Notes under the pieces: generated by a model
What the model saw: only the letters and a program-made list of their open reading frames with translations
The model's database searches: none
What the model was told of the DNA's origin: nothing
Shown here: piece after piece, positions 28,444 to 61,773 of the stretch
Layout: every line of letters begins with the position of its first letter
How positions within the stretch are numbered: position 1 is the stretch's first letter
Position numbers and translations under genes: made by a program
Virus record (IMG/VR): IMGVR_UViG_3300032214_000555
Span: 1 to 63,571 of that record
Source: a virus
Lineage: Duplodnaviria > Caudoviricetes
Strand: one strand, 5' to 3'
DNA length: 63,571 nt

Positions 28444-28743
28444 ATGGGAGCTATTAAAAAAGCATTTGAAGACCAGATAAACACAGGTTCAATCGGTGGT
28501 GATGAAGACTATGGATACGATGGTTGGACAGAAGAATTAGAAGAACAATATTGGAGAGAACAACCTCCATATCCATTTGCTACCGAAGAAGATTTGGCAG
28601 AAATCAACAAACGAATCCAACCAAAATATTCAGATATGGATGTGGATACTGTTTTGGGTGTATTAAATGACCCATTTTTGGCAAGTATGTTGAGAGAAGA
28701 GTTTGATAACATATATAATTTAAAGAATGGATACTTTGAGTAA
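28444..28743 (+). CDS. Acidic hypothetical protein
   Basis: ORF after a promoter-like motif. Confidence 0.7.
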   Translation: MGAIKKAFEDQINTGSIGGDEDYGYDGWTEELEEQYWREQPPYPFATEEDLAEINKRIQPKYSDMDVDTVLGVLNDPFLASMLREEFDNIYNLKNGYFE

Positions 28744-30151
28744 AAAATTTATACTTGGGTACGATGTGATGACATACAATGGGGAAATACCTAATTGTTT
28801 GCCACATAAATTTTTACCTACAATACATAATGCATCTGATTTTTATTACTCAAACTCAGGTGAAGGATACCAAAAACGATGGAATAGGCATTGGTTTTTA
28901 TATAATAGCAACTTTTATAACGATTTTGCTATTAAAAAATCAGTATATGATATTTTACACTATCATGGAAAAGAAACGTGGTTTTATATTGTAGAACCAT
29001 TTGCTTCACTAGAAAACTTTTTTGGTAATGATGAGTTTTACAATACATTTGCATTGAATAATATGTCCAAAATAGCATTGGATGCTATTAAAAATGGACA
29101 CGGTAATTTACTAATAAATTATATCATAGACGGTGGGTTGGGTATAAATGTTCCAAATTTCCAAAAAATTATAGATTTTACCAGAGGTAATGGTATTGCG
29201 GATGAAAAAGTTCATTTGGTTTTTCAAGACTTCAAATTAAAAGATAATATTAAAAAATTGGGAGTTGATTATAATGTATATGATTTCAATATGGCATTAC
29301 AATCTAAATCGCAAGAATTTAATAAAACAATAAATGACCCAAACTTTTCATTTTGGGGACCAGATAGTCACGAATCGCAAGTTGGTAAAATGCAACGAAA
29401 TGTAAATAGTGTTGCAACATATTCTGAATTTGAAGAAAGTATTGGTAAAGATAAAAAGGATTTTCTATTTTTATGTAGACATTGGAAACTACATAGATTA
29501 ATTTTAATGAATGAATTGTATAAATTAGGAATAGATAATAATTTAGTTTCGTGGGATAATAAATTTTATCATGACCATATTGTAGATAATTTTCAAAATT
29601 ACGAAGAAAGTCCTGAATTTGTTGAGTTGATTAAAACAACATCCAGAACTTTGGATATAGATGATTTGACCAGAATTGCAGGATATGGATTTGAAAATAA
29701 AGATATGTACCTAAATTCGTATATCAGTTTAGTATCCGAATCTATATTCTTTCAAGAAAATTCGGATGAAAATGGTATTTCACAATTTCCAACAGGATAT
29801 TTAAGTGAGAAGATTTGGAAACCAATAGGGCATTCACAACCTTTCATATTAGCAGCACCATCTAAATCATTAGAATATTTAAAAACACTTGGATTTAAGA
29901 CATTTTCTCCGTATATTGATGAAAGTTATGATTTAGTAAATAATGATTCAGAAAGATTGGAATTAATTATTCAAGAGATACGAAAATTTGCGAACAAAAC
30001 AAAGGAAGAAAAAGACCAATTCTTAAAAGATGTATCACATATAGTTAAACATAACTACGAATTGTTTCTAAATTACACTTCAAATGAAGTTCATATAAAA
30101 GATTGCAAAAATATTATATATAATTTATTAAGAATAAAGACAATAGTATGA
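28727..30151 (+). CDS. Glycosyltransferase-like protein (GT-B, EK motif)
   Basis: FLFLCR.WKLHR, ISLVSES, LSEKIWKPI..QPFI, GFKTF..IDESYD; ends KTIV. Confidence 0.7.
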   Translation: MDTLSKKFILGYDVMTYNGEIPNCLPHKFLPTIHNASDFYYSNSGEGYQKRWNRHWFLYNSNFYNDFAIKKSVYDILHYHGKETWFYIVEPFASLENFFGNDEFYNTFALNNMSKIALDAIKNGHGNLLINYIIDGGLGINVPNFQKIIDFTRGNGIADEKVHLVFQDFKLKDNIKKLGVDYNVYDFNMALQSKSQEFNKTINDPNFSFWGPDSHESQVGKMQRNVNSVATYSEFEESIGKDKKDFLFLCRHWKLHRLILMNELYKLGIDNNLVSWDNKFYHDHIVDNFQNYEESPEFVELIKTTSRTLDIDDLTRIAGYGFENKDMYLNSYISLVSESIFFQENSDENGISQFPTGYLSEKIWKPIGHSQPFILAAPSKSLEYLKTLGFKTFSPYIDESYDLVNNDSERLELIIQEIRKFANKTKEEKDQFLKDVSHIVKHNYELFLNYTSNEVHIKDCKNIIYNLLRIKTIV

Positions 30152-30390
30152 TACACTACGACCCAACAAGAGAACTAACGGCAAACGAATTGAATACATT
30201 GGATGAAAAAGATTTCTTTGCTTATTTGGATGCGAGAACAAAACACTTAAAGCAATTTACTAAACCTTTATCAGAACATCACACCAAACACTATTCAGCA
30301 ATGGATGCAGCAATCGGTGGTAGAGAATTTACAGACGAACATTATAAAACGGCTAAACAAATAGCAAAACAAAACAGTTATGAATATTAA
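30148..30390 (+). CDS. Hypothetical protein
   Basis: Coupled ORF. Confidence 0.7.
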   Translation: MIHYDPTRELTANELNTLDEKDFFAYLDARTKHLKQFTKPLSEHHTKHYSAMDAAIGGREFTDEHYKTAKQIAKQNSYEY

Positions 30391-31200: not shown

Positions 31201-31848
31201 ATGTCAACTGTTTGGACATTTGGTGATAGTTTAACCGAACGATACAATCCAAAACAGGATTGGGCAGAAGAATATATAAAGTTTAAAGGATACCACCCAA
31301 AAGTTTATGGTGATTTCATTTCAGAAAATTTAGGTTATGATTTACAAAATTTAGGAAAATGTGGGTGTGATAACTATACAATCTTCGAAACCTTTTGTAA
31401 AACATATCCTTTAATAAAAGATGGAGATATTATTATATTTGGTTGGACATCTTGTTTAAGATTTAGAATGGTAAACGAAGATAATGGGTGGCAATCTATA
31501 CTCCCATACTATGAAAATCGTCTAAAACATTTTAATTTTTTATCAGAAAATACAATAAATGAAATTCTTATAAATAGAAGTAATTTACCATATATAGAAG
31601 AGTTGAATATTAAGATAGATTTTATAAACGAACTATGTAAAAATAAAAAAGTAATACATTGGACCAATTTTCATACGGAATTGAATGCATTCTTTTTTGC
31701 AGAACATATAGAAAAAATCAGAGATGAAACTTTAAATAAAATTGATGACTCTCATTTTTCAGAAAACGGACATATAAAATTATCAAAAGAATTATTATAT
31801 ATAATGGTAAATAATATACCGTTTGAAACTAATACAAAATTAATATAA
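31201..31848 (+). CDS. SGNH-hydrolase-like protein
   Basis: WTFGDSLT, NLGKCGCDN, DSHFSENGH; ends TKLI. Confidence 0.8.
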   Translation: MSTVWTFGDSLTERYNPKQDWAEEYIKFKGYHPKVYGDFISENLGYDLQNLGKCGCDNYTIFETFCKTYPLIKDGDIIIFGWTSCLRFRMVNEDNGWQSILPYYENRLKHFNFLSENTINEILINRSNLPYIEELNIKIDFINELCKNKKVIHWTNFHTELNAFFFAEHIEKIRDETLNKIDDSHFSENGHIKLSKELLYIMVNNIPFETNTKLI

Positions 31849-33093: not shown

Positions 33094-33465
33094 ATGAAAC
33101 CAATTCACAAATTTAACGGAGGTATCGGAGCAACACTATGTAATGAGTGTAGTAAGATTATATCAGAAGGTATGACCGATGATTTGTTCTGCGATGAGCA
33201 TGGTGGTAAAACATTCAAATATACACTAATCAGAGAACGAGATGGTTTAACTATTGGTGCAAACAAGATAGCTTGGATAGAATGGAGTGGTAATGGTACA
33301 GGTAAAGCAATGCACGAAGAACCCGCAGTTGATATGAGTTTGATGTTAGAGCCATCTATCAGTTATAAGTGGATGACAACTACTGTAACCGAAATTGTAG
33401 AACAGAGAGAGGGTTATGTTAAATTTAAAACACTAAACAGTATTTACGAATTAAAATATGAATAA
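33094..33465 (+). CDS. Hypothetical protein with N-terminal Zn-binding motif
   Basis: KFNGG.GATLCNEC..FCDEH. Confidence 0.75.
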   Translation: MKPIHKFNGGIGATLCNECSKIISEGMTDDLFCDEHGGKTFKYTLIRERDGLTIGANKIAWIEWSGNGTGKAMHEEPAVDMSLMLEPSISYKWMTTTVTEIVEQREGYVKFKTLNSIYELKYE

Positions 33466-34624
33466 TATAGACAAATCATATCAGGCATTACTGAAAGATA
33501 TTTTAGAGAATGGTGTAGAGAAGCAGGATAGAACCGGAACTGGCACCATATCTGTATTCGGCAGACAAATCAGACATAAGATGAGTGAGGGATTTCCTTT
33601 ACTCACTACAAAGAAGATGGCTTGGAAGACAATTGTTACAGAACTCCTATGGTTTCTACGTGGTGATACCAACATCAAATTTCTATTAGATTACGATTGC
33701 CACATTTGGGATGGTGATGCGTTTAAAAACTATACTAATGCGGTTGAAGATATTATTGACGGTTATAGATGTGGTGACATTATGGGAATACAACCACATA
33801 TTGAAGCGATGTTTAGTAATACCGATGAATTAATTCCCTTAACAAAAGAAGAATTTATTAGTAAAATAAAAAATGATAAAGATTTTGCCAAAAAGTGGGG
33901 TGATTTAGGACCAATCTATGGTAAGCAATGGAGACAGTGGCAAGGTTGGATGGATATGAATGGTAATGAGAAAGGTTCATTATGGTACGACCAGATTTTG
34001 GAAGTAGTTCATTCTCTAAAAACAAATCCAGATAGTAGAAGATTGATGGTATCGGCTTGGAATGTAGCAGAGTTGCATCAAATGGTATTACCACCTTGCC
34101 ACTATGGATTCCAATTCTACACCAGAGAGTTGAGTAACAAAGAAAGATACAGAATTTGGTTCAATAAGAATTACGAGAGTGGCATGGAATATAACGATGA
34201 ACTAATACCTGATTTTGATGACAAGTATTATGATTCAACCCCAAAGAGAGCAATATCTTTAATGTGGAATCAAAGGAGTGTGGATACATTTTTAGGATTA
34301 CCGTTTAACATTGCTTCCTACGGATTACTATTACAGATTGTAGCAAAGGAAGTGGGGATGTATGCAGACGAACTTATTGGTAATTTAGGAGATGTTCATT
34401 TGTATTCTAATCATTTAGAACAGGCAAAAGAACAAATCAGTAGAGAACCATTCAAATTACCTAAATTAGAAATAACAGAACGGAATTGGTATTTACACGC
34501 AAAGGTTAAAGAACATTTAGGTGAGAAGACATTCAAAGATAAGATATTATCTTACAGACCTGATTGTTTTGAAATAAGAAATTACCAATCACATTCAAAA
34601 TTAAGAGCACCTTTATCGAATTAA
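33458..34624 (+). CDS. thyA: Thymidylate synthase
   Basis: DRTGTGT, ELLWFL, LGPIYGKQWR, LPPCH, QRSVD.FLGLPFN, HLYSNH. Confidence 0.97.
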   Translation: MNNIDKSYQALLKDILENGVEKQDRTGTGTISVFGRQIRHKMSEGFPLLTTKKMAWKTIVTELLWFLRGDTNIKFLLDYDCHIWDGDAFKNYTNAVEDIIDGYRCGDIMGIQPHIEAMFSNTDELIPLTKEEFISKIKNDKDFAKKWGDLGPIYGKQWRQWQGWMDMNGNEKGSLWYDQILEVVHSLKTNPDSRRLMVSAWNVAELHQMVLPPCHYGFQFYTRELSNKERYRIWFNKNYESGMEYNDELIPDFDDKYYDSTPKRAISLMWNQRSVDTFLGLPFNIASYGLLLQIVAKEVGMYADELIGNLGDVHLYSNHLEQAKEQISREPFKLPKLEITERNWYLHAKVKEHLGEKTFKDKILSYRPDCFEIRNYQSHSKLRAPLSN

Positions 34625-37918: not shown

Positions 37919-39763
37919 ATGAGTAGAGAAGAGCATTTGATGCGTACATTCCCTATGAAAGACGGTACAACTTACATACAAAATTTAGATAATCATATGG
38001 GTAACATTAATGCTGAAAACAGATTAGGGGAGCAAGTAGAAGACGGCAGAGAGGTATTTGACTTAAAAGTTGATTTGCTAGAATACATGCGACAAAACGT
38101 ATTTGTAGAAAGAAGCAAATTAAAAGTAGAACATCAATTTCAGTTTGAAACAATTGAAGAGCAAGATGCATTACTAATTCAAGTTCCTAATATAAATGAG
38201 AGTGGATACTATGCAGGTATAGTTGCATTGAAATCTTATATAGATAAATACTCACCTGAAATACGAGTTGCAATTGTAGACCCGGTGATTGATTACTTTT
38301 TTATAAATCCACCAGATAAACAAGGTGAGTTTTTTAATATGTTTAACACATATTCTAAACAAAGTCAATTTCATTTATTATATGAGCATCAAGAGATATA
38401 TGATATTGCATATGGGTTTGTAGGTAGATATATTGAGAAAGCAAACCCAAAGGTTTTAGGATTTAGTATTATAGATGGGAATATAGATGCTACTCTTGCT
38501 ATATCTAAACTGATAAAGGAAAAATATCCTAACATCAAAATCCTAATAGGTGGTAATGGTGTTGAATGTTTAGAGTTTGGTAGATTACCTAATTCAAATT
38601 ATAGAATAGATGATTATGATTTTATAGATGCAATCGTTAGAGGTGATGGGGAGCTGACATTCATAAACTTATTAAAATCAGATTGGAGTGATGAATCTTT
38701 ATCCGAAATTAAAGGTATAGTTTGGAGAGCAGAGGGTAGTTGGGTTCATAACACTACGAGTGATTATGTTGATATGAATACATTACCAGTTCCCGATTAC
38801 TCTTCATTAGAAGAAAACTATTATTACAAATCGGTTTATCAGGATACTAAACCATTATCAATGAGTACGGGTTGCCCTTACAGATGTTCATTCTGTTCGG
38901 TGCCAGAATATATACCTGAATTTAGACAGAAGAACATTTCTACTGTATTGCAGGAGATTGAGAGTTGGGTAGCAAAAGGACACAGATATTTCTTCTGTCA
39001 TGATAGTATCATCAACGGTAATCCAAAGTGGTTAAAGAACCTATGTGAAGCTATTGTAGAAAAGGATTTAGATATTAGTATAGGAGCTAATATTAGATTA
39101 TCATCACCTATGAGAGATTTGGATACGATGAGATTATATCGTAAAGCGGGTTTAACTAAAATGATTACGGGATTTGAATCGGCATCCGAACCGGTGTTGA
39201 GGCATATGAAGAAATACACCAATGTAGAGGGTGTTAGGGAAATATTTGAAAATGTAAGACAAATCAATAAAGAAAACATAGGGACTAAATATGAATTTCC
39301 ATTATTGTTTGGTATGCAACTTATCATTGGATATTTAAATGAGGGAGAAGATGATTTCCAAAAAACAATGGACTTCATTGAAGAGTTCAGAGATTGTATG
39401 GAGGAAATAGTAACCTGTTCAGCATTCCTTATACATCAACCATTACAGAAACGATGGATAAGAGAGGGAGAATATTTAAACTATATAAATGGTGTTAATT
39501 TTGCAACACTATACAATACACCAAAAGATAGATTGGATAGATTGGATAGAGCGGAGCAAACATTTAAAAGAATTGGAATTCCATACTCAATATACAACAG
39601 AGGGTTATATGCTGAATTGGATGCAAAGGGAGAATTAGGACAAGTTGGAGAAGAGTTCAACAAAAGAGTTGTAGAAGAACCAATAGTTGAGCAAGTTGTA
39701 GAAGAGATACCTATTATATCAAATATTATAGTAGAAGAACCAGTAAAAAGAAAATTGATATAA
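37919..39763 (+). CDS. B12-binding-domain radical SAM enzyme
   Basis: ILIGG, VRGDGE, GCPYRCSFC (CxxxCxxC), GFES; ends RKLI. Confidence 0.9.
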   Translation: MSREEHLMRTFPMKDGTTYIQNLDNHMGNINAENRLGEQVEDGREVFDLKVDLLEYMRQNVFVERSKLKVEHQFQFETIEEQDALLIQVPNINESGYYAGIVALKSYIDKYSPEIRVAIVDPVIDYFFINPPDKQGEFFNMFNTYSKQSQFHLLYEHQEIYDIAYGFVGRYIEKANPKVLGFSIIDGNIDATLAISKLIKEKYPNIKILIGGNGVECLEFGRLPNSNYRIDDYDFIDAIVRGDGELTFINLLKSDWSDESLSEIKGIVWRAEGSWVHNTTSDYVDMNTLPVPDYSSLEENYYYKSVYQDTKPLSMSTGCPYRCSFCSVPEYIPEFRQKNISTVLQEIESWVAKGHRYFFCHDSIINGNPKWLKNLCEAIVEKDLDISIGANIRLSSPMRDLDTMRLYRKAGLTKMITGFESASEPVLRHMKKYTNVEGVREIFENVRQINKENIGTKYEFPLLFGMQLIIGYLNEGEDDFQKTMDFIEEFRDCMEEIVTCSAFLIHQPLQKRWIREGEYLNYINGVNFATLYNTPKDRLDRLDRAEQTFKRIGIPYSIYNRGLYAELDAKGELGQVGEEFNKRVVEEPIVEQVVEEIPIISNIIVEEPVKRKLI

Positions 39764-50823: not shown

Positions 50824-50851
50824 ACGTTCCTCCTCTGAGATTTTTTGAGTT

Positions 50852-51784: not shown

Positions 51785-52766
51785 GTGGAGAATCTCTGCT
51801 TTACCTACACCTGCTACCTCAAAAGAACAACGAGAAATCAAACCCCTTACATTCGATGTAGGATTACCGTTAGATAATATCAAAGCAGTATTAGATGTTG
51901 ATGGGATTGTGGTTAAAGTAGGTACGGATTATTTGTGTTCTAAGAAAACCTTAAAGGTTATAACCGATTCGGATAATCCACACTACGATATAGTAGCAAA
52001 CGGAAGGATACCCGTTAAAACAAAAGAGGTTACGATAGGGAAGACTATCCCCATAATTTCGATTGATAATACTCAGTTCTCAGTAATAGGTACTCAGAGA
52101 GATACCGTTAATCAGAATGCAGGTGTTAAATCAGTAGATTACATATATGAGGGAAAACAAACTCAGGGTGTATCAAATAATCTAATCAAACAAATTAATT
52201 ATACATTAGGTGATGGTACAAGACCCGGTGATTCTTTTGAGTTGTACGACCTCAAATTAGCTGACCCGATGGCATACTCCGTTGCACCTCTAATCGTTTC
52301 TACAACGCAAGAGGATGGTAAGTTTGAGAAAGGAAAATTAGAATCCTTTTTGATGGGAACTAAGGAGAGATTGAAGATTCTACAATCGGATTTCGATATG
52401 ATAAGAGAAACCTTCTATAACGGTGCTCCTCCCCAATCCAAAGGAATTCTTAAAATAGATAACCAAGTAGCTTCTGCGCAAGATGATACAACCTTTGAGG
52501 GCTCATACACTAAGAAGAGTTCTGAAACTGTATCCGTACAACAAACACCTGGTGATAAAGCAATCGATGCTCAAAAGAAAGCAACCGAAGAACTGGCTAC
52601 CAAAGCTGCCGATGCTCTCAAATTGGAAACCGATGCATTGAAGACTCAACAAAAATCTCTAAAAGAGAGAATTGCGGATGCGGGTGGTATAACCGATTAC
52701 ATCCGTCAACAAGGTGGTTGGGACAAATTTAGACAATCGTTAAGAGACGAGAAACAAACTAAATAA
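51729..52766 (+). CDS. Hypothetical protein
   Basis: 345-aa ORF with C-terminal coiled coil. Confidence 0.75.
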   Translation: MEITKQNQNPERYSKQNSKWRISALPTPATSKEQREIKPLTFDVGLPLDNIKAVLDVDGIVVKVGTDYLCSKKTLKVITDSDNPHYDIVANGRIPVKTKEVTIGKTIPIISIDNTQFSVIGTQRDTVNQNAGVKSVDYIYEGKQTQGVSNNLIKQINYTLGDGTRPGDSFELYDLKLADPMAYSVAPLIVSTTQEDGKFEKGKLESFLMGTKERLKILQSDFDMIRETFYNGAPPQSKGILKIDNQVASAQDDTTFEGSYTKKSSETVSVQQTPGDKAIDAQKKATEELATKAADALKLETDALKTQQKSLKERIADAGGITDYIRQQGGWDKFRQSLRDEKQTK

Positions 52767-52773
52767 CTAAGTT

Positions 52774-53013
52774 ATGTTAAATGAAAAACAAATCAATTTT
52801 TTGGAAGGATTAGGGGTAGCAATGAGAATCCTTGCCTTTGGTGTTCTATCTATTATGAATAAAGATACACCGTTCCTTGCTATGTGGATTGTGAATACAA
52901 TCGATGCCGTTATACTTACTTATTGTGCTTGGTGGAGACGAAACACTGCCTACATCGCTCTCAATCTATTTTGGTTACTCGTTGGTATTGTTGGTATATG
53001 GAACTCGCTCTAA
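52774..53013 (+). CDS. Small 3-TM membrane protein
   Basis: Hydrophobic; LN.FW..VGI.G. Confidence 0.7.
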   Translation: MLNEKQINFLEGLGVAMRILAFGVLSIMNKDTPFLAMWIVNTIDAVILTYCAWWRRNTAYIALNLFWLLVGIVGIWNSL

Positions 53014-53159
53014 TGTGGTTTTGGATTAAGAATATTGTAATGGGTATTCTCTCTATACCTTTTATCCTTATGGGGGTACTTGCTTTCGTTATAGGGGGAA
53101 TATTCCATTTTCTACCATGGTACATCAAACGATGGTTAAAACGAAGATACTATCAATAG
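53013..53159 (+). CDS. Small membrane protein
   Basis: Start moved to the TAATG-coupled ATG. Confidence 0.6.
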   Translation: MWFWIKNIVMGILSIPFILMGVLAFVIGGIFHFLPWYIKRWLKRRYYQ

Positions 53160-53181
53160 GGTAAAGATATTTCTTTACGAC

Positions 53182-53222
53182 AAATTTTCTTTTTGACGAA
53201 TTTCCCCCCAACCCCCGCCCCT
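53182..53222 (-). repeat. G-run element, copy 2 (inverted)
   Basis: Reverse complement AGGGGCGGGGGTTGGGGGGAAATTCGTCAAAAAGAAAATTT. Confidence 0.75.
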
Positions 53223-53316
53223 CAAAATAATCCTAAAAATAAAGGTTCATTTTTTTGGAAATGTGGATAATTATTAGTATATTTACTATATTCCTACAAC
53301 TACATTTTCGTTACTA

Positions 53317-53619
53317 ATGAACATCTCTGCGTTACATAAACTTGAAAAGGGTTACATCAAGTTAAATTGGAAATCTTACATCCACAAAATCGAATTATCC
53401 AAAGACCATATGGAAACCATCATCGATATGATTGATGTGTTTAAGTTTAATAAGAAAACTGATGAATTGGTTATATTCAGATTTGAAGGTATTCCTGCTT
53501 ATATAACCATTCCCAAAGAAGAGTATAAGGAGTTGTTAGATTGGATGTATGAGAAAATGATACAGTATGAATTTTTCGAAAATTGTCAAAGAATTAATGA
53601 TTTAATAAAAGTGTTATGA
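53317..53619 (+). CDS. Hypothetical protein with UVR-like motif
   Basis: YEFFENCQRINDL. Confidence 0.7.
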   Translation: MNISALHKLEKGYIKLNWKSYIHKIELSKDHMETIIDMIDVFKFNKKTDELVIFRFEGIPAYITIPKEEYKELLDWMYEKMIQYEFFENCQRINDLIKVL

Positions 53620-53834
53620 GTGATATAAAAGACATCGTTAAGAGTTGGTGGACATCCTTTAACCCAACCGAAGAACAATCAAAAGAGGGTGAGAGAAGAT
53701 TATTAATATGTGCCGGATGTGAGAAACGTCAGGAATCAATAGTGTTTGGTTATGTATGTGGACAATGTGGTTGTCCTTTGGGTAAGAAGATATTTTCAGA
53801 TGTTGAGCAACCCTGTCCTCTAAATAAGTGGTAA
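53616..53834 (+). CDS. Cys-rich small protein (DUF6171-like)
   Basis: RLLICAGCE..CGQCGCPL..CPLNKW. Confidence 0.8.
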   Translation: MSDIKDIVKSWWTSFNPTEEQSKEGERRLLICAGCEKRQESIVFGYVCGQCGCPLGKKIFSDVEQPCPLNKW

Positions 53835-53835
53835 T

Positions 53836-54405
53836 ATGGAAAAGATATATTTTGATAATATAGACATATTCGAAAACTTCTTATCAATCGAAGAATGTAA
53901 TTTTATTTTAAATAAATGTAAAAAAGAATTAACATTATCAGAAGCTCAAGTTAGCACTAATAACCCCAACCCACCGTATAAAAGAAGAAAATCATCAGTT
54001 GGTTGGATTTCGGATTTAGAGTTTTTAAATGAAAGGTTGGAAAACAAATTAAGAGAAACTTTTAATATAAATGGTATGGAAGTTACCGGATTAGGAGATT
54101 ATCAATTTACTGAATATAAAGAAGGTGAATATTTTGATTGGCACACCGATAGCACCGATAGCGTATTTACACATAGATTTGCTTCTGTGGTGATTCAATT
54201 AAATGATACATATTCCGATGGTATACTAGAAATTAAAAATATTAAAGAAGAACTAGTACCAATTCAAAATAAAATTGGAACGTTGTATATTTTTAATTCA
54301 AAATTATTGCATAGAGTAACACCTGTAACCGATGGTGTTAGATACTCATTAGTAAATTGGGTATCATTGGTTAGAACAAATTCAGGTAAGCAAAATTTAA
54401 TATGA
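53836..54405 (+). CDS. 2OG-Fe(II) oxygenase (prolyl-hydroxylase/PiuC-like)
   Basis: FDWHTD, LHRVTPV..GVRYSLVNW; ends KQNLI. Confidence 0.9.
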   Translation: MEKIYFDNIDIFENFLSIEECNFILNKCKKELTLSEAQVSTNNPNPPYKRRKSSVGWISDLEFLNERLENKLRETFNINGMEVTGLGDYQFTEYKEGEYFDWHTDSTDSVFTHRFASVVIQLNDTYSDGILEIKNIKEELVPIQNKIGTLYIFNSKLLHRVTPVTDGVRYSLVNWVSLVRTNSGKQNLI

Positions 54406-55019
54406 TAGATGGATACCATATATTTGATGATATAATTTCGGAAACATATCAAACTAAATTAGAAGAATATGTAAAACTTTCAAATTTAAAATGGAATTAT
54501 CAACATAACATAACCGGTGGATATGGGGGTACTGATTCATTAGAATTACCTGCAAATGTTTTAAAAGGTGTTGATATTACAGATACTAATATTCTTAATA
54601 TAATACATTCTATAAAGTTAAATTTACTCAATAAACTTAATTTGGAATTTGTAATGGATTATAGATATAAGATAAATTGGACTACTCCTTTAAGTAAAAA
54701 TTATGATTTTGAAAATCTAATACACATTGATATGGATGTTGACCATATTGCTATTGTTTATTATATAAATGATACCGATGGTAATACCGTTTTTTTAAAC
54801 AACAAAAAAGGAAATTCAGCAGAATCTCATCAAAGTAATCTTAAAGGTATTAAATTGGATGATTTTGAAATAGTAAATAGAATATCTCCTAAAAAGGGAA
54901 GGGCAATTATATTTGATGGTAACATTTATCACTATGGTGAATACCCAACTACAACCGATAGATTTATAATTAATTTTGATTTAGTTGGTAAATGTGGAAA
55001 TATTAATAAATTAATATAA
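54402..55019 (+). CDS. 2OG-Fe(II) oxygenase
   Basis: HID, YYINDTDG.T, PKKGRAIIFDG..YH, RFIINF; ends NKLI. Confidence 0.85.
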   Translation: MIDGYHIFDDIISETYQTKLEEYVKLSNLKWNYQHNITGGYGGTDSLELPANVLKGVDITDTNILNIIHSIKLNLLNKLNLEFVMDYRYKINWTTPLSKNYDFENLIHIDMDVDHIAIVYYINDTDGNTVFLNNKKGNSAESHQSNLKGIKLDDFEIVNRISPKKGRAIIFDGNIYHYGEYPTTTDRFIINFDLVGKCGNINKLI

Positions 55020-55020
55020 T

Positions 55021-55677
55021 ATGGAAAAGATATATTTCGATGACACTACTTTTTTATGGAAAACTAAATTAAATAAATTAGATGATAGGTCATCTTTTTT
55101 AAAAGAAGCCTACTCTGTTATAGAATCACAACCTGATACTAAAACGGATGGATTTGGATATATAAAATACGATAAAACTATTATAAATTTTATTGGTGAA
55201 ATTAATATTAATAGCAAATTAGATGAAGTTGTTCAATTGGGTATTAACATGTGTAAAGAATTATATACACAATCAAATAATAATATATTCAATCGAATTA
55301 ATACCGATTCGTGGGTAAATGTAGTTCGTTCTAAAAATCCGGTTCAACTTGAATTTACATATGAAAAAAATAAAAGGGTAGATAAATTCCATTCTCATAC
55401 CGAAATAAATAAAAGATTTGATTTATTTGTTCCTGATTACACTTATGTATATTACATTCAAATGCCAGATATTATGAATGAAGAAGACGGTGTTTTATAT
55501 TTTAGAGGTGAGAACAAAAAAGAATATTGGATAAAACCAGAAGAAGATGATTTAATTATAATGCCAGGTTGGATGCCACACGCTCCAAACAACGCACCAA
55601 ATGCAACAATTGATAGAGTGGTATTAGCTGGAAATGTTGGGTTTGAATTTATTAAAAAAGAAAAATCCATAATATAA
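55021..55677 (+). CDS. Putative 2OG-Fe(II) oxygenase
   Basis: SWVNV, HSH, YVYY, P.W.PH, RVVLAGN; ends KSII. Confidence 0.8.
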   Translation: MEKIYFDDTTFLWKTKLNKLDDRSSFLKEAYSVIESQPDTKTDGFGYIKYDKTIINFIGEININSKLDEVVQLGINMCKELYTQSNNNIFNRINTDSWVNVVRSKNPVQLEFTYEKNKRVDKFHSHTEINKRFDLFVPDYTYVYYIQMPDIMNEEDGVLYFRGENKKEYWIKPEEDDLIIMPGWMPHAPNNAPNATIDRVVLAGNVGFEFIKKEKSII

Positions 55678-56450
55678 TGTTAATAGATAATAAATTTATA
55701 TATTTAAGTTTACCGAGAAGAGGTTCTACTTCATTTCATTATTCTTGTATATTACATAATTTAGAAATTCAAACTTTAAATGGTTGGAATTTTATGAATA
55801 CAAATGTAGATTTCACTAAAATAGATGAAAATATAATAATGGACCATATTTTTCACGGACATGAATCTTTACTAGAATTGGGTAAAAAGTTCGGATATGG
55901 TTATCCAACGATAGCAGTTAAACGTGATAGGCATGAAACATTTTATTCATTATATAAACATCTACTTTTTGAATTTGAACGTATAGGTGCTAATGAATTT
56001 TATGAACATTTTATAAATATTACATTAGATGATTTATTTTTTTATAAAACAGAACAATTACTAACTAAAAAAGATAGATGGGATATTATATGTGAATATT
56101 TAATAGATAAAAATTTATTACCAAATCGTATTAAAATTCCAATTGGTATTTACGGAACTCCAATTAGCTTAGATTTAGAACAATATATTATTAATGTTAT
56201 TGACCTATTAATAACGCCATCTTCATATTGGCATAACAACGACCCAAATGTTATATGGTTTGATATGAAAAATTTAAAAGTTATGGAAGAATGGGTTTCA
56301 AATATTACAAAAAAACCATTTATATTAAGTAATGTAAATTCAAGCAAACACATGGAAAGTAAATTGGAATTAAATTCCGATTTTATTGAAAGATATAATA
56401 GTATTTATGATTTTTATGATTTACCAAAATCAATTAAAACTTTAATATAA
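55677..56450 (+). CDS. Sulfotransferase-like protein
   Basis: YLSLPRRGSTS PAPS loop; VKRDRHE.F.SLY; VNSSK; ends KTLI. Confidence 0.7.
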   Translation: MLIDNKFIYLSLPRRGSTSFHYSCILHNLEIQTLNGWNFMNTNVDFTKIDENIIMDHIFHGHESLLELGKKFGYGYPTIAVKRDRHETFYSLYKHLLFEFERIGANEFYEHFINITLDDLFFYKTEQLLTKKDRWDIICEYLIDKNLLPNRIKIPIGIYGTPISLDLEQYIINVIDLLITPSSYWHNNDPNVIWFDMKNLKVMEEWVSNITKKPFILSNVNSSKHMESKLELNSDFIERYNSIYDFYDLPKSIKTLI

Positions 56451-56451
56451 T

Positions 56452-56739
56452 ATGATTAATTATAAAGAAATATTTGAAGCTTGGAAAATATCAATGAATC
56501 CAACTAAAAAACAAGAAGAGTTAGCTGAAAAAAGATTGGGGGTGTGTATTGGATGTGAATATAGAACTGAGATAGTAACTGGTCTAAAATGGTCCGAATT
56601 ATGTAGTGCATGTGGGTGTCCTCTAAATAAAAAAGTATTTGCCACAACGTTTAATGCATGTCCAAAGAAAAAATGGGAAGATGTGGATTCGGGATATTTA
56701 GAACCAATACCTGATAAAGATAAAAATTCATTAATTTAA
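56452..56739 (+). CDS. Cys-rich small protein (DUF6171-like), paralog of 53616
   Basis: RLGVCIGCE..CSACGCPL..CPKKKW; ends KNSLI. Confidence 0.8.
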   Translation: MINYKEIFEAWKISMNPTKKQEELAEKRLGVCIGCEYRTEIVTGLKWSELCSACGCPLNKKVFATTFNACPKKKWEDVDSGYLEPIPDKDKNSLI

Positions 56740-56777
56740 TTGAATGTATATTTATAAATAAAATATAAAGAAAAACT

Positions 56778-58472
56778 ATGAAAGGAATTATTCTTGGAAC
56801 AGACCTATTAGAACATAATGGTGATGTTAAAATATTAGAAACAAATACAAATACTACAACATTTAATGAAGGCTCAGACCTATTGGATTACGATGCCTTA
56901 TTTACTATGTTGGTATCAAATTCAATAACTGAATTTCATTATATATGGACGGAGCAATCTGCGTATCTACCTGGAAACCAACCTTACAGATTTAAAGCAA
57001 TATTAGAACAAAAATGTTCCGAAAATAATATAACATTTACCGATTACATTGTATCATATGGTTCAGTTACAGTTCCGTATATTGAAGATGCTTCCCATAA
57101 ATTTATTTTAAGACAATCATACGATACAACTGCATTGGTAGATGATACTTATTGTGCGGATAAATTTGAATTTTTCTCTTTAATGAGTGGTTCTTCATAC
57201 ATCCCAAATACATATCAAAATGATGAAACATTAGGTATTGACACTATCAATACAATAACCGATAATGGTAGTAATCCAAACGTTTTAATAAAATCTAGAT
57301 ATCCAACGTATGATACTGGATTGTATCCAGAATTGCATATATTATCAACCGATGAGGAATTAACTGCATTAAAATCTGAAACTCCTGCAAATTATTTATT
57401 ACAAGAATTTATATTTGATGAAACAAATTTAGTAGAAGGTAGATACTCAATTATTAGAAGTATGGATATTATATATGGTAGCAATTTAGATGTTATCAAT
57501 ATGGGTGGATATAAACAATCTACCGTTCTCCCACTTGAATTTACTCCAACTGAATTATTAACCGGTACTACTAAACTAAATCAAAAAAGTAAATACAAAT
57601 ATATTACAAAAGAAATAGGTAGACAAAAAGGAGTTGAGTTTCATACCGATGATGATAGTATGATATTAGATTATACTGGTTCATTGATAGATGTTGATAC
57701 TATAAAATTAGGTGATTACGTTAAATCTATAAATTTTGAAGATAAAGGTGGTTATAACGCTGCCGATTTTACAGCAGATATTACGACTTACAGATGGGAT
57801 TCCACTCTGCAATTATCAAATGAAACTTTAACACAAACATCATCTAGTTTGCAAGAAATCATTTCAACATCGGTTGATACTTTATATATAAGATTAACAT
57901 TAGAAGATGGTAGAACATGGGTTGATTCACCAGCTTGTACATATTATATTGAAGAATCGGGCTCATTAGTTACAAGATTTGAAAAATTAAATAAAATGTA
58001 TGTTGGTGATAAGTTGGTAATAACGGATTCTACTACAAACGCATTAACTACGATTGCTATTGCCGGACTAGAAATGGAACACGCTCAAAAAGTAATTTAT
58101 ACATTAAATTTTGAACCATCGGATTTATTTTTAGTGGATATTGATGGTGGTGATTTTGGTATAATGCACAACGGTTGTTGGTGTCCATCTTCATACTGTG
58201 GAAATTATTGTCTTGAATATACCTGCCCTTTTTGTACAGGTGGATTTAAATCAGATATATCATTTAAAGAAAATGTAAATTTAATTGGAAAGTCATCGTT
58301 GGGAATTAACATATATCAATTCAATTATATAGGTGAAGAGGGATTATATGAAGGTATAATAGCACAAGAATTAATAGGGACTGAATATGAATCTGCTTTA
58401 TCTTTAAATGAAGATGGAAAATATTTAGTAGATTATAATAAAATTGATGTTGAATTTAAAAAAATAAATTAA
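56778..58472 (+). CDS. Polyprotein: circularly permuted ATP-grasp + Hint domain + Cys-rich peptide + peptidase S74/ICA domain
   Basis: GTD..ILETNTN at the N-terminus, LIKSR, LLQEFI; IKLGDYVKS..VGDKL..IYTLNFE..MHN; GCWC..6 Cys; SDISFKEN..GINIYQFNY..GIIAQEL..VDYNKI. Confidence 0.75.
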   Translation: MKGIILGTDLLEHNGDVKILETNTNTTTFNEGSDLLDYDALFTMLVSNSITEFHYIWTEQSAYLPGNQPYRFKAILEQKCSENNITFTDYIVSYGSVTVPYIEDASHKFILRQSYDTTALVDDTYCADKFEFFSLMSGSSYIPNTYQNDETLGIDTINTITDNGSNPNVLIKSRYPTYDTGLYPELHILSTDEELTALKSETPANYLLQEFIFDETNLVEGRYSIIRSMDIIYGSNLDVINMGGYKQSTVLPLEFTPTELLTGTTKLNQKSKYKYITKEIGRQKGVEFHTDDDSMILDYTGSLIDVDTIKLGDYVKSINFEDKGGYNAADFTADITTYRWDSTLQLSNETLTQTSSSLQEIISTSVDTLYIRLTLEDGRTWVDSPACTYYIEESGSLVTRFEKLNKMYVGDKLVITDSTTNALTTIAIAGLEMEHAQKVIYTLNFEPSDLFLVDIDGGDFGIMHNGCWCPSSYCGNYCLEYTCPFCTGGFKSDISFKENVNLIGKSSLGINIYQFNYIGEEGLYEGIIAQELIGTEYESALSLNEDGKYLVDYNKIDVEFKKIN

Positions 58473-58473
58473 T

Positions 58474-58608
58474 ATGGCAATTACAACAGTAGAAAGACCT
58501 ACAACGGTCATAAAAAACATAGTAGCACCAATTTCTTCCGCAGAAAAAACACAAATTGCAGCTGCGGTTCAAGAAATTGTTAATAGAATTAAAGCTAAAC
58601 ATTTGTAG
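58474..58608 (+). CDS. Small protein, 44 aa (MAITTVERPTTVIKNIVAPISSAEKTQIAAAVQEIVNRIKAKHL)
   Basis: Read by hand; exactly fills the gap. Confidence 0.7.
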   Translation: MAITTVERPTTVIKNIVAPISSAEKTQIAAAVQEIVNRIKAKHL

Positions 58609-58611
58609 TTT

Positions 58612-59136
58612 ATGAATGTTTTGATTATATCTTTGCCTAGAACGGGTTCTACCGAATTGGGCAAAGATATATCTATTAAGCGTAAAATAAAATACGAGTG
58701 TGAACCATTTAATGGTGGGAATGTGTTATTAACTAATTTCGATTTAAACAATATAGTTTTAAAAACAATCTTATTTCATTTACCATCGTATGTAAATGAA
58801 TCCAATCGAATCAATTGGCTAATTGAACTTTCTAAAAATTTTAATGAAGTAATTTTACTATCACGTAGAAATTTAATTAATTGTGCCGAAAGTTGGGCAT
58901 ATTTGCAATATAACGAAAAACAAAAAAGTTTTAAAGCAGATGAACCGTATCTTTGGGAAAGAACTCCAAACTTTGATAAGGAATTTGAATTTATTCAAAA
59001 GTGTAATGATGAATTGGTGTATATATCTAAAAAATTAAATATCCCAATAACATACTATGAAGATATATATAATGAGAATGATTCAAATAAATTGAGGAAA
59101 GGTAATAGATTTGATTATTCTAAAAATATAATCTAA
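58612..59136 (+). CDS. Sulfotransferase-like protein
   Basis: IISLPRTGST, EPFN, LSRRN...AESW, YYEDI; ends KNII. Confidence 0.75.
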   Translation: MNVLIISLPRTGSTELGKDISIKRKIKYECEPFNGGNVLLTNFDLNNIVLKTILFHLPSYVNESNRINWLIELSKNFNEVILLSRRNLINCAESWAYLQYNEKQKSFKADEPYLWERTPNFDKEFEFIQKCNDELVYISKKLNIPITYYEDIYNENDSNKLRKGNRFDYSKNII

Positions 59137-59144
59137 TAAAAGTT

Positions 59145-60392
59145 ATGAAGTTATACATACATCATTATTATCAAAAATCTATATTTTACAAAATAGCACA
59201 CAATACCACAGATAGAGAATACTTTATTGAAAATGGTGAAGGTATTGTAAAATGTAAATATAATGGTGTTGATATTGAAATAGTATTCAAACAAGAAATA
59301 AGTTTTGAAGATGATGGATACCATATATTAGATTACTTTACTGCTCTTTTCTACGGAAGCAATGACCCAAAGATTGGATATATCCATAGGGATGAGCATT
59401 ATATGGAAAGAGAAACTCAACAGATTCTATCTATATATAAAAATCTTTTAAAAGATGTTCCTAAAAATCAAAAATGGATATTCACCTATTTTAGAACAGA
59501 AAAGATATTTCAAACAAACGATGCATCTATATATGATGAAAAGTGGTTTGAAATAGAACAGATGCTTTCTAATTTAGGTAATCACCATATTATAATTGAT
59601 AATGTGTTTTTGACAAATAGTTCGGAGAGTAAATATCCCAATCTACATTTTTCTTTAACTAATACTATTTTCCAATGGAATGAAATAATTGCAATCCGTT
59701 GGTTCTATGAATTTAAGCAAATTTATAATAAGTTGAATTTTGATTATGATTTAATGTATAGTATTAAAAATCATAAAATAAATCGTGTGAATATTATAAA
59801 TGAATTAGGAAAGCTGAATCAACCTAAATTATTATTACAACACACAGATGCTCTTCAAAATCCAGATTATCAAAAACGTTCACCTCAATTAAAAAATATT
59901 CACACTAACTCAATATACGGAGATACTGATTTTTCCGATGTTAGTTGGATTGAAAATCATAGAGGATATATGGATATGTTTTTTAGAGTTTTACCAAAAG
60001 CCAAAATGCAAATTCTTTGTGAAAGTTGGTCGTGGGATAATAGAGAATTTGCATCACAATATCTTTCCGAAAAAACATTTGCATTTATTTTAGCAGGTAT
60101 CCCATTCATATCAACGCACGAATATCCATTACAAATTCTACAAAAAATATTAGATTTACCACCACATCCGTTCTATAAAGAATCTGTTAAATTTAAAACA
60201 AATGGTAAGTTGTTTGCAGAGTTTGTATCTGAGTTTTTGAATAACTTTGATGAAAATTACATCCTATGCAAAGAATGGTCTGATTTGGCACATACTAAAT
60301 TAATAGAATTGGTTGAGAGTAAAAATTCACTATTAGATTTAATTTCAAAAAATTTTCAAAAACCAAACATATCTTCTAAATCTATAATATAA
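59145..60392 (+). CDS. Glycosyltransferase-like protein (GT-B, EKT motif)
   Basis: QILCES, YLSEKTF..IPFI; ends KSII. Confidence 0.65.
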   Translation: MKLYIHHYYQKSIFYKIAHNTTDREYFIENGEGIVKCKYNGVDIEIVFKQEISFEDDGYHILDYFTALFYGSNDPKIGYIHRDEHYMERETQQILSIYKNLLKDVPKNQKWIFTYFRTEKIFQTNDASIYDEKWFEIEQMLSNLGNHHIIIDNVFLTNSSESKYPNLHFSLTNTIFQWNEIIAIRWFYEFKQIYNKLNFDYDLMYSIKNHKINRVNIINELGKLNQPKLLLQHTDALQNPDYQKRSPQLKNIHTNSIYGDTDFSDVSWIENHRGYMDMFFRVLPKAKMQILCESWSWDNREFASQYLSEKTFAFILAGIPFISTHEYPLQILQKILDLPPHPFYKESVKFKTNGKLFAEFVSEFLNNFDENYILCKEWSDLAHTKLIELVESKNSLLDLISKNFQKPNISSKSII

Positions 60393-61084
60393 TGGATGTT
60401 ATATTTACATACCTACCAATTAGATTAAAAGATATTACTGAAATTTATTTGAAGTATAGTATTGATAATCTAAATAAACAAAATATTGAACCAATTATAT
60501 ACTCTGATATAGATTATTTTAATCACACCAACTTAAAGTATAAATGGATTCGGTTTGATGTTGATGATAGGTATAAGGTAGATGGGTTGTGGTCTTATCC
60601 TAAATTAAAAGTATTATCAATAATCGATAAACCATTTATACATTTGGATAATGATTTGATTGTAGAAGATTTTAGTAAGTTAATTAAAATACTAAATCCA
60701 AAAGAATTAAATATATGCTATAAACATTTGGTTAATGATGTTAATAGTTTTATTGAAATTTTTAAAAAATATTCAAACAAAAAACTTAACTTTGAATATT
60801 TGAATAATACATCTATTATAGCTACGGAACAATATCAATTAGTTAATAAATCATATATAGAGGTGTTAGATGTTATAGATTCGAATTATGATTTCTTTTT
60901 GAATAGATATAATACCATACCACCTATTACTCTAAATCAGCAATATCCAAATTTATATTTCAATAACATACATTATTTATTTGATGAAAACCCACCCTAT
61001 GGTAATTTAAATATAAATGGAATATGCCACCTGGCAGAAAAGCAAATGGAAAAAATATTTATTACAGATAACAAACTTATATAA
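60392..61084 (+). CDS. GT-A-like (DUF6734-like) protein
   Basis: LWSYPKL..PFIHLDND, NQQ, CHL; ends NKLI. Confidence 0.7.
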   Translation: MDVIFTYLPIRLKDITEIYLKYSIDNLNKQNIEPIIYSDIDYFNHTNLKYKWIRFDVDDRYKVDGLWSYPKLKVLSIIDKPFIHLDNDLIVEDFSKLIKILNPKELNICYKHLVNDVNSFIEIFKKYSNKKLNFEYLNNTSIIATEQYQLVNKSYIEVLDVIDSNYDFFLNRYNTIPPITLNQQYPNLYFNNIHYLFDENPPYGNLNINGICHLAEKQMEKIFITDNKLI

Positions 61085-61773
61085 TGAATACAATTTGGGC
61101 ATTTGGTGATTCTATGACATTTGGACATGGTTGCAATATAGAGTGTGAATCTGAAACTAAAATCAATTATTTACCTTTCAAAAAAGATGGAGATGATATT
61201 TGGACAAATCATTTGGCTAAACTATTAAATTATAATGTTGTAAATTTAGGAAAGAACGGGGCATCAAATGATTATATTTTAGATTGTATAATAGATAATT
61301 ACGATTCTATACAACCAAATGATGTTGTAGTAATTAATATGACACTACATGGTAGAATGGAAGTTCCGTTTAAAAGTGGAACGTATAGTATATTATCTGG
61401 CTATGAAAAGAATAAAACATTTATGGATGATATAGAACCACAGATATATCATGCAAAAAAACAAACAAAGGAGGAGGATGATGAGAAGATAGAATCACTA
61501 ATTAATTTCCAATATCATTTTTCAAATCATCAGTTTTACAAAGATAGACATACTAAAAGATTTAATTTTATTAAAGATAGGTTATTGAACGAACGCAAGG
61601 TAAAATGTGTGTATTTATGGTCTTTGGAAGATGATGACGGAGTATATGCTTCATTTGAAACTATACAAGATGCGACAAACGGTTTAGTAAATGATACACA
61701 TTTTTCATTTAATGGTCATTTTAACTTTGCTCATTTCTTAAATAAATTGGTTTCTACCAAAAGGTTAATATAG
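61084..61773 (+). CDS. SGNH-hydrolase-like protein
   Basis: WAFGDSMTFG, NLGKNGASN, DTHFSFNGH; ends KRLI. Confidence 0.8.
   Translation: MNTIWAFGDSMTFGHGCNIECESETKINYLPFKKDGDDIWTNHLAKLLNYNVVNLGKNGASNDYILDCIIDNYDSIQPNDVVVINMTLHGRMEVPFKSGTYSILSGYEKNKTFMDDIEPQIYHAKKQTKEEDDEKIESLINFQYHFSNHQFYKDRHTKRFNFIKDRLLNERKVKCVYLWSLEDDDGVYASFETIQDATNGLVNDTHFSFNGHFNFAHFLNKLVSTKRLI

Follow-up and report, generated by a model that had tools for sequence, protein, structure and literature searches.

A shared C-terminal tail on the tailoring enzymes of an uncultivated phage: a candidate docking signal

INTRODUCTION

C-terminal peptides that give unrelated enzymes a common address are known for organelles and for protein shells; for a viral biosynthetic cluster, none was found described in the full-text literature searched. 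This article concerns a candidate. It is a short tail at the end of twelve gene products of a 63.5-kb virus record, IMGVR_UViG_3300032214_000555 (63,571 nucleotides; the whole record is called the window below). Most of the twelve are encoded around a tail-less "central protein" with ATP-grasp-like and Hint/intein-like parts. Across 80 related loci the tail has the consensus K-[S/T]-[L/I]-[I/L]-COOH and ends enzymes of many unrelated folds. It very probably acts at the level of the protein. That it docks these enzymes onto a common partner is the favoured reading, and about even confidence is attached to it.

By analogy, the tail is closest in form to two described signals, PTS1 and the class I PDZ ligands, and neither definition fits it fully. 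PTS1 (peroxisomal targeting signal 1) is a tripeptide at the C-terminus that Pex5 recognizes through its TPR domain. Its likeness to the tail lies in a short motif at a free C-terminus, basic and then hydrophobic, on unrelated enzymes that one receptor reads (or, for the tail, would read). However, PTS1 belongs to a eukaryotic organelle, whereas the tail belongs to a T4-like phage with a transfer-messenger RNA (tmRNA), has the form K-[S/T]-[L/I]-[I/L], and comes without a TPR domain in the phage proteins searched (see below). A class I PDZ ligand ends in [S/T]-x-hydrophobic-COOH and needs its free carboxylate. Of 448 tails, 288 have Ser or Thr at the corresponding place, ahead of a hydrophobic last residue; the other 160 have Lys, Asn, Tyr, Glu or His there. 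Unlike the x of the PDZ definition, the penultimate residue of the tail is conserved (Leu in 348 and Ile in 90 of the 448), and no PDZ domain was detected in the same phage proteins.

Encapsulin cargo-loading peptides have about 10 residues and the elements of dockerin-cohesin pairs about 70. Here, too, a C-terminal element is appended through a flexible linker to unrelated enzymes, which it brings to a common scaffold. The difference is that these elements are longer than the tail and that neither an encapsulin shell nor a confirmed cohesin was found. A 764-residue protein of a complete relative (G001) has a Cohesin match of 23.9 bits, just below the Pfam cut-off of 24.1. A further comparison is with peptides that are made on the ribosome and then modified (RiPPs), whose biosynthesis uses a leader peptide on the substrate and a recognition element on the enzymes. 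The present cluster is similar in that a ribosomal product with a Cys/Trp-rich stretch lies beside many tailoring enzymes and self-cleaving modules. It differs in that the common recognition peptide would be on the enzymes, and in that the candidate substrate is an enzyme-like protein of 490 to 560 residues.

The enzyme repertoire itself is of a known kind. Cyanophages carry arrays of dioxygenases and Trp halogenases that are predicted to modify peptides, proteins or metabolites, and in bacterial clusters a substrate of the phage tail-collar or collagen-like kind goes together with hydroxylases, sulfotransferases and PAPS (3'-phosphoadenosine-5'-phosphosulfate) synthetases (Iyer et al. 2010, PMC2938197; Iyer et al. 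2021, PMC7824862). The same repertoire recurs, again in phages, in the cluster considered here. However, the passages of these two papers that deal with such arrays make no mention of a shared C-terminal tail or of an ATP-grasp/Hint central protein. No description of either was found in the full-text literature searched.

THE TWELVE TAILED GENES OF THE WINDOW

The window has a G+C content of about 27-39% and carries nearly all of its genes on the plus strand. These were represented by 115 plus-strand open reading frames (ORFs) of at least 40 codons, chosen greedily without overlap. Twelve end in the motif K.{0,2}[LI][IV]$, as the original prediction had claimed, where 0.60 would be expected from amino-acid composition and 0.52 from the frequency of the motif inside proteins. 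The binomial P of 2.7e-13 is post hoc, the motif having been defined on the same data, and therefore the replication in relatives described below weighs more. The twelve are also the sole ORFs of the 115 to end in [LI][IV], with Lys at one of the three positions before that pair in every case. The coordinates first given for them hold as the start codons of the genes and not as the positions of the tails, which are the last four codons before the stops (second coordinate of each tailed gene below). The variety of codons claimed for the tails was borne out.

Nine of the twelve fall among 11 consecutive genes (53836-61773), the exceptions in this block being the 564-residue central protein and a 44-residue ORF. 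The other three are satellite genes. The genes concerned and their neighbours, all on the plus strand, are as follows.

28727..30151, plus strand: satellite gene, 474 residues, no Pfam family; tail KTIV at 30137-30148.
31201..31848, plus strand: SGNH-like satellite gene, 215 residues (Pfam match below cut-off); tail TKLI at 31834-31845; family F13, 12/18 tailed.
37919..39763, plus strand: B12-binding/radical SAM satellite gene, 614 residues; tail RKLI at 39749-39760; next gene 95 nt on.
53317..53834, plus strand: pair of small ORFs without the tail that open the cluster, one of 100 residues and a DUF6171-like one of 72; conserved in a distant clade as well.
53836..54405, plus strand: 2-oxoglutarate (2OG)-Fe(II) oxygenase (PF13640); tail KQNLI, last four codons at 54391-54402.
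54402..55019, plus strand: 2OG-Fe(II) oxygenase-like; tail NKLI at 55005-55016; family F12, 20/20 tailed.
55021..55677, plus strand: 2OG-like (PHROG 81); tail KSII at 55663-55674; family F4, 62/69 tailed.
55677..56450, plus strand: enzyme of 257 residues, no family assigned, N-terminal LPR-x-x-ST loop; tail KTLI at 56436-56447; family F1, 83/83 tailed.
56452..56739, plus strand: DUF6171-like Cys-rich protein, 95 residues; tail KNSLI, of which NSLI at 56725-56736; next gene 38 nt on; family F3, 78/79 tailed.
56778..58472, plus strand: central tail-less protein; 0/80 of its family tailed.
58474..58608, plus strand: conserved tail-less ORF of 44 residues after the central protein, ending KAKHL.
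58612..59136, plus strand: enzyme of 174 residues, unconfirmed as sulfotransferase-like, LPRTGST loop at the N-terminus; tail KNII at 59122-59133; family F5, 63/63 tailed.
59145..60392, plus strand: enzyme of 415 residues, no family assigned; tail KSII at 60378-60389; tailed homologues described below.
60392..61084, plus strand: DUF6734-like (below cut-off), 230 residues; tail NKLI at 61070-61081; family F14, 18/18 tailed.
61084..61773, plus strand: SGNH-like, 229 residues, closing the block; tail KRLI at 61759-61770; next gene 41 nt on.

The central protein, which the original prediction called a polyprotein and took to be tail-less, does lack the tail and ends in KKIN; the thymidylate synthase, the CobS-like AAA protein, the endonuclease and similar housekeeping genes of the window lack it likewise. 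Pfam confirms that the tail sits on unrelated folds, but not the labels "sulfotransferase" and "glycosyltransferase" once given to the genes at 55677, 58612, 59145 and 28727. The Pfam matches behind the SGNH and DUF6171 labels lie below the cut-offs in the window. Three of the twelve are 2OG paralogues. At E <= 1, Pfam gave nothing usable for the genes at 28727, 55677, 58612, 59145 and 60392 or for the 44-residue ORF. Searches of PDB profiles with the families F5 (58612) and F1 (55677) gave nothing significant; the best match, a lipopolysaccharide sulfotransferase at E 0.48, covered the N-terminal loop only. For the radical SAM gene at 37919 no relatives were found among viral contigs, and its match in the complete relative is limited to residues 2-26. 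Its tail may be either real or a product of chance.

RECURRENCE IN RELATED VIRUSES

Relatives were collected with a profile of the central protein, which gave 233 confirmed IMG/VR loci, and the best 80 were kept. Their 1590 ORFs were clustered together with those of the window, and members of the resulting families were scored as tailed when they ended in a hydrophobic pair, [LIVM][LIVM]. ORF calling was mechanical, and the C-termini hang on stop codons alone. All families come from uncultivated viruses. The loci are partly redundant, and so 448 tails were used for the sequence logo after de-replication and 36 loci, thinned at 85% identity, for covariation.

In 14 unrelated enzyme families from the 80 loci the hydrophobic pair ends 647 of 664 members. 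The tail is found in all 2OG oxygenases (165/165), all members of the 257-residue family F1 (83/83) and of the 174-residue P-loop family F5 (63/63), all Trp halogenases (51/51) and all members of a radical SAM family (15/15). It is nearly as constant in the DUF6171-like proteins (78/79), the SGNH/DUF6071 proteins (45/46) and the 415-residue family (21/22), and less so in the 2OG-like family F4 (62/69). The folds that are both tailed and confirmed by Pfam as unrelated are the double-stranded beta-helix, the flavin-dependent (Trp) halogenase, radical SAM, FkbM, SET and SGNH. Two of these, an FkbM methyltransferase and a SET-domain protein, are tailed in the complete relative, where the broad motif ends 21 of 382 ORFs against 3.4 expected; nine of the 21 lie in the cluster.

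The logo of the 448 tails has Lys at -4 in 262 (Asn 63, Ser 37, Gln 26), Thr in 145 and Ser in 143 at -3 (Lys 63, Asn 36), Leu in 348 and Ile in 90 at -2, and Ile in 330 and Leu in 113 at -1. A further Lys is common at -7 (236).

Searches from single enzymes point the same way. Five loci found through the 415-residue protein have the same gene block and the same kind of tail. Among the 120 of its 467 homologues that were listed (50-91% identity), all 115 full-length ones (at least 400 residues) end in a hydrophobic pair and 110 of these in the broad motif, with the consensus KSLI. For the 2OG oxygenase at 53836, 118 of 119 close homologues end in K-Q/R-N-[LI]-[IL] or similar. The satellite gene at 28727 has 14 homologues in other viral contigs; 12 end in a hydrophobic pair, seven of them in KTLI, and their neighbours do not. 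The claim that some tailed enzymes are encoded far from the cluster is thus upheld by this family.

How closely does the tail follow the central protein? In a distant clade, in which the central protein is about 30% identical, two loci were inspected. Eight of nine and seven of 10 cluster genes are tailed, and the central protein is not. The link between tail and central protein thus outlasts deep divergence. Of the records with homologues of the 28727 protein, four could be searched; in three of them a remote homologue of the central protein turned up (26-27% identity in the ATP-grasp part), and the two loci just described are among these three. Within cultured phages, the halogenase has its closest homologues in pelagiphage HTVC008M and in cyanophages. 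Such cultured representatives of the arrays described by Iyer et al. differ in being mostly without the tail: in the halogenase and 2OG genes of HTVC008M and Syn1, the strict motif is present in one of 10 (a 2OG protein ending KIV) and a hydrophobic pair in two of 10.

AN APPENDED, FLEXIBLE EXTENSION

The 2OG family allows tailed and tail-less homologues to be compared. When 150 representatives (50% clusters) are ranked by similarity, the tail is found on 24 of the nearest 25, on 14 and on eight of the two sets of 25 that follow, and on three of the last 75. When the ends of the first 70 representatives are compared, most of those without a tail stop a few residues after the conserved RYSLVxW strand, whereas tailed homologues have about 10 extra residues and end in, for example, N-[YF]-K-K-T-L-[IL]. 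In an AlphaFold (AF2) model of the 53836 oxygenase, with a mean predicted local distance difference test score (pLDDT) of 85, the last strand spans residues 169-180, and residues 185-189 have a pLDDT below 50. This agrees with the description of the tail as an appended extension: tail-less homologues end after the last beta-strand, and the modelled tail is of low confidence. In entropy profiles of eight families, most of the positions -12 to -5 rank with the most variable in the protein, and the final two rank with the better conserved. In other words, the tail is a variable extension that is apparently disordered in the model, with a conserved end. It has the marks of a short linear motif, namely few conserved residues on a variable disordered end and presence on unrelated folds.

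TAIL-LESS CONTROLS AND PATHWAY SPECIFICITY

The order of the cluster is conserved: adenosine 5'-phosphosulfate (APS) kinase, nucleotidyltransferase, DUF2061, tailed enzymes, central protein, more tailed enzymes. This supplies controls from within the 80 loci, and in these the tail ends none of 80 central proteins, three of 30 APS kinases, none of 41 nucleotidyltransferases and none of 44 DUF2061 proteins. The first three genes in the order, a sulfate-activation trio, would make a cofactor and would not touch a macromolecule. The conserved ORF of 44-48 residues after the central protein is tail-less too, as are neighbouring HD, HSP20 and other genes. The complete relative adds 20 listed enzymes and cofactor-supply proteins outside its tailed set. 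All of them lack the tail, including a Pfam sulfotransferase, a 2OG oxygenase, six glycosyltransferases, two radical SAM proteins, a methyltransferase by the tail-fibre genes and the APS kinase trio. The tail had been claimed to be confined to the tailoring enzymes of one pathway. An equal frequency in all gene classes, the outcome contrary to this claim, was looked for and was not found. Genes of the same class and the same composition are without the tail, and therefore it is a mark of membership in the pathway, not of enzyme class or composition.

The trio deserves a few words of its own. It usually adjoins the cluster (L034, L035, most loci); its nucleotidyltransferase has a HIGH motif and is possibly ATP sulfurylase-like, and DUF2061 is a membrane protein. 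In G001 it lies at 90776-91838, far from the cluster. In the window, tblastn gave no match to the trio better than E 7.6e-4. Its usual place beside the cluster suggests that the pathway uses PAPS. G001 also has a second, tail-less set of modifying enzymes (216466-245552; L017-L019) by a 1747-residue fibre protein that bears an S74 module. This set includes a sulfotransferase, a hydroxyproline-arabinosyltransferase-like glycosyltransferase, a 2OG oxygenase, three GT7+LamG proteins, radical SAM proteins and sugar-nucleotide enzymes.

THE CENTRAL PROTEIN AND ITS CLUSTER

The central protein (564 residues; model pLDDT 72) has an ATP-grasp-like part at about 1-280, a Hint/intein-like part at about 286-465, a Cys/Trp-rich stretch at 466-490 and an S74-like self-cleaving module at 491-556. 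Residues 1-280 resemble the ATP-grasp enzymes glutathione synthetase, YgiC and glutathionylspermidine synthetase, with a Foldseek E value of 4e-5 and Z scores of 7.3-8.7, which lie in the uncertain range. Residues 282-472 match a BIL domain with Z 15.9 and an intein with Z 15.7; S294 at the start is near-invariant and H464-N465 at the end are invariant. In the model, the fold, the N-terminal nucleophile and the C-terminal His-Asn are all those of a Hint/intein-like domain. The His-Asn is followed by a stretch of about 25 residues rich in Cys, Trp, Pro and Tyr. The S74-type module is found in the window only; relatives end after the Cys-rich stretch, and some of the clusters surveyed have further Hint modules. 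Cleavage at both ends would free the Cys-rich peptide. In GenBank phages the central protein has a match only at its S74-like end (residues 492-556, structural proteins of Brucella phages), and none to the ATP-grasp/Hint part.

The enzymes around it are 2OG hydroxylases, a Trp halogenase, SGNH and radical SAM proteins, FkbM and SET methyltransferases, P-loop sulfotransferase-like proteins and a Cys-rich protein. The composition of the Cys-rich stretch may fit this chemistry: Trp would suit the halogenase, Pro the prolyl-hydroxylase-type oxygenases, Tyr or Ser the sulfotransferase-like proteins and Lys the SET protein. The gene for the DUF6171-like Cys-rich protein (F3) is always immediately upstream of that for the central protein. 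The 44-residue ORF on the other side is 40-70% identical to ORFs of 45-48 residues in relatives and matched no family; its product could be a precursor, an adaptor or a regulator. The system is widespread, with the 233 confirmed loci in IMG/VR and, in a protein collection, 591 homologues of the central protein and 467 of the 415-residue enzyme.

GENE COUPLING OR PROTEIN-LEVEL SELECTION?

Many genes of the cluster overlap or abut, and a peptide at the end of a gene could be a by-product of a nucleotide signal. In the window, tight junctions (gap -5 to 2) have more than their share of tailed genes, which precede eight of 37 of them against four of 71 elsewhere (Fisher P 0.02). The codons are also biased. 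Ile at -1 is encoded by ATA in 250 of 330 cases, where about 136 are expected, and A-ending codons are over-used in the last two codons generally. However, the ATA excess is confined to overlaps, being 125/126 at ATGA (-4) and 89/99 at TAATG, because an ATGA overlap forces the final A of the last codon. Where a gap of over 20 nt separates a gene from the one that follows, the codons for Ile at -1 (ATT 56, ATA 37, ATC 3) are near the background of about 47:41:12, and 103 of the 106 genes of tail families in this class retain the tail. The DUF6171-like family is an example: 77 of 78 members with a same-strand next gene are tailed, and the gap to this gene exceeds 20 nt for 77 of the 78. In the window itself, four tailed genes have the next gene at 8, 38, 41 and 95 nt. 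Lys, Thr and Asn codons in the tails are used close to background, and Ser at -3 is drawn from both codon boxes (TCT 23, TCC 10, TCA 41, TCG 20, AGT 46, AGC 3). TGA stops are over-used in tailed genes (L022-L101; 159/448 against 249/1142 elsewhere), mostly in ATGA overlaps.

The tail is kept at background Ile codon usage in the class with distant next genes, and therefore stop/start coupling does not explain it. The AT-rich coupling sequence once named as a possible full explanation, TTAATATAATG, occurs as an exact word once in the window, and uncoupled genes keep the tail. The varied codons had been read as favouring protein-level selection, a view that gains from the use of both Ser boxes and from the uncoupled genes. 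The tail is thus very probably a functional signal of the protein. That it is instead a by-product of coupling or initiation of the next gene, or of a junction for cassette recombination, is highly improbable in spite of the tight junctions and A-ending codons: 29 of the 37 tight junctions do not follow a tailed gene, the genes for APS kinase, nucleotidyltransferase and DUF2061 in many cases overlap with the one that follows and have no tail, and isolated satellite genes keep theirs. The recombination variant was rejected on the same facts of gap and codon. An origin by chance, by AT-rich composition or by descent from one ancestral gene could appeal to Lys, Leu and Ile being the three commonest residues of the window ORFs and to the three 2OG paralogues. 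Yet the counts (12 against 0.5 in the window, 21 against 3.4 in the complete relative), the Pfam-confirmed unrelated folds and the tail-less genes of like composition in the same genome leave such an origin next to no credit.

WHAT MIGHT READ THE TAIL

The proposal is as follows. A conserved C-terminal K-[S/T/K/N]-[L/I]-[I/L]-COOH, placed on a flexible linker and appended to many unrelated folds, would mark out the enzymes with which one phage pathway works on its macromolecular substrate. The pathway would be built around the tail-less ATP-grasp/Hint protein with its Cys/Trp-rich end, plus the 44-residue peptide. One common reader would bind the free C-terminus of all tailed enzymes and gather them at one place. 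For this reader, a tail-less cluster product would be the most plausible choice and a host factor the alternative; candidates are the central protein, the 44-residue peptide, the proteins of 100 and 72 residues at the cluster head and a host protein. An appended peptide with a free carboxylate, on a flexible linker and on unrelated enzymes, fits a sorting or docking signal read by one partner. Binding and a partner are what docking would add to the motif, its conservation, its independence of overlaps and its pathway specificity, and the chances that it is correct are judged about equal either way. Slight support for one co-evolving reader may come from within genomes, where unrelated families tend to share a tail variant (8/2000 permutations for Leu or Ile as the last residue, 22/2000 for Thr at -3).

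Several observations weigh against docking. No reader was found: PDZ, TPR, Clp and Lon families are absent at E <= 1e-4 from 327 ORFs of the complete relative, and from the window at Pfam E <= 0.001 to 0.01. (The 327 are from the 329 ORFs of at least 70 residues that lie in one piece; two short minus-strand ORFs and eleven ORFs across piece boundaries were left out.) The covariation was measured on 36 loci that are still related, and three of five features gave a null result. That the enzymes act on the central protein is deduced from synteny only. The tail is incomplete in some families (F4 62/69, F13 12/18) and missing from two of the 14 homologues of the 28727 protein, and the L119 cluster has one 2OG protein ending in IF and one tail-less gene of 246 residues. 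A protease degron, too, could look like a Lys followed by a hydrophobic C-terminus. A complex prediction for residues 1-466 of the central protein with a tailed 2OG oxygenase scored 0.00 in both runs, which is uninformative on binding. Small heat-shock proteins bind I-x-I peptides, which is why the HSP20 at 62981-63373 was considered as a reader; in several relatives its gene is a neighbour of the cluster. Two other ideas, a sliding-clamp-binding motif and membrane-targeting helices, were set aside by the length and shape of the motif only.

What if the tail is read by a protease? As a C-terminal degron, recognized by a host or phage protease or unfoldase, it would confine the activity of the enzymes to a window of time. 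Nonpolar C-termini, and basic-then-hydrophobic ones, are known bacterial protease and unfoldase signals; the tail is exposed and flexible with two nonpolar end residues preceded by Lys, and the phage encodes its own tmRNA, which puts C-terminal tagging within its biology. However, the tmRNA tag ends in AIAA, unlike the tail, and the 327 ORFs scanned in the relative include no Clp or Lon family. It is also hard to see why macromolecule-tailoring enzymes, and not the APS kinase trio, should be short-lived, and tail variants shared within a genome would need a fast-evolving reader, which a core host protease is unlikely to be. A degron is therefore an unlikely reading, if one to be kept in mind. 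Less likely again is a covalent handle, in which the ATP-grasp part activates the tail carboxylate, or the tail Lys attacks the Hint ester, and the enzymes become tethered. The ATP-grasp ligases that the central protein resembles (E 4e-5; Z 7.3-8.7) do act on peptide carboxylates, its Hint fold (Z 15.9) has S294 and H464-N465, and Lys is the commonest residue at -4 (262/448). But the ATP-grasp Z scores are in a range that may reflect a mere common arrangement, Lys at -4 is not invariant (Asn 63, Ser 37, Gln 26), and to our knowledge such a handle has no precedent. An equally doubtful proposition is that the basic-hydrophobic end directs the enzymes to the membrane or into the capsid or some other structure of the phage. 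Lys is frequent in the last ten residues (236/448 at -7, 262/448 at -4), ahead of the hydrophobic end, and small membrane proteins (DUF2061, family F26) are encoded in or near the cluster. Against this, four conserved residues on a variable linker are too short for an amphipathic membrane helix, and enzymes that depend on FADH2, 2-oxoglutarate, S-adenosylmethionine or PAPS would presumably idle in a capsid.

To return to docking, the gathering might be done by the ATP-grasp/Hint protein itself, covalently or not. Its own Cys/Trp-rich end would then be decorated (by halogenation, hydroxylation, sulfation and methylation) and freed by the Hint and, in the window phage, also the S74 module, which would make the cluster a "reverse-leader" peptide factory. 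This more detailed scheme is speculative and on present evidence improbable.

THE WINDOW PHAGE AND ITS RELATIVES

The complete relative G001 is 287,455 bp long and has the structural genes of a T4-like myovirus (Gp23 capsid, T4 portal, sheath, gp19 tube, gp25), which marks the window, on sequence grounds, as a fragment of an uncultivated large tailed phage. Nothing in GenBank phages is close to the window at the DNA level, 53000-63571 is without a DNA match, and the products of 59145 and 55021 have no protein match there. Pfam families of the window include thymidylate synthase, a CobS-like AAA protein, an endonuclease, a phosphoribosyltransferase, HSP20 and an HD protein. The match of the 388-residue thymidylate synthase homologue (33458-34624) spans 381 residues on a profile of 264 positions, and therefore this protein has a large insertion, as does that of the relative (368 residues). 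At 11743-18619, among small ORFs, lie a tmRNA (tag GEYNYAIAA) and then 24 tRNA genes, with an RNase H-like protein (15217-15747) inside this region.

Two oddities of the relatives may be mentioned. Contig L005 bears the label of a giant-virus metagenome-assembled genome in its IMG/VR name, despite the T4-like structural genes of the clade; this is probably a binning artefact. G001 encodes, at 49569-52838 (L009:9569-12838), a 1089-residue TonB-dependent-receptor-like outer membrane beta-barrel with a CarboxypepD_reg domain. This is unusual in a phage and gives a hint, no stronger, of a Bacteroidota host.

CONCLUDING REMARKS

If the tail were a degron, it would mean a phage-encoded, coordinated and pathway-specific turnover of enzymes. 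If it is a docking signal, it would provide a sequence rule by which the enzymes of the pathway, including those encoded far from the cluster, could be picked from metagenomes. A tag of four residues could then recruit arbitrary proteins to the same reader. Docking would also offer an entry point to a widespread and uncharacterised phage pathway.

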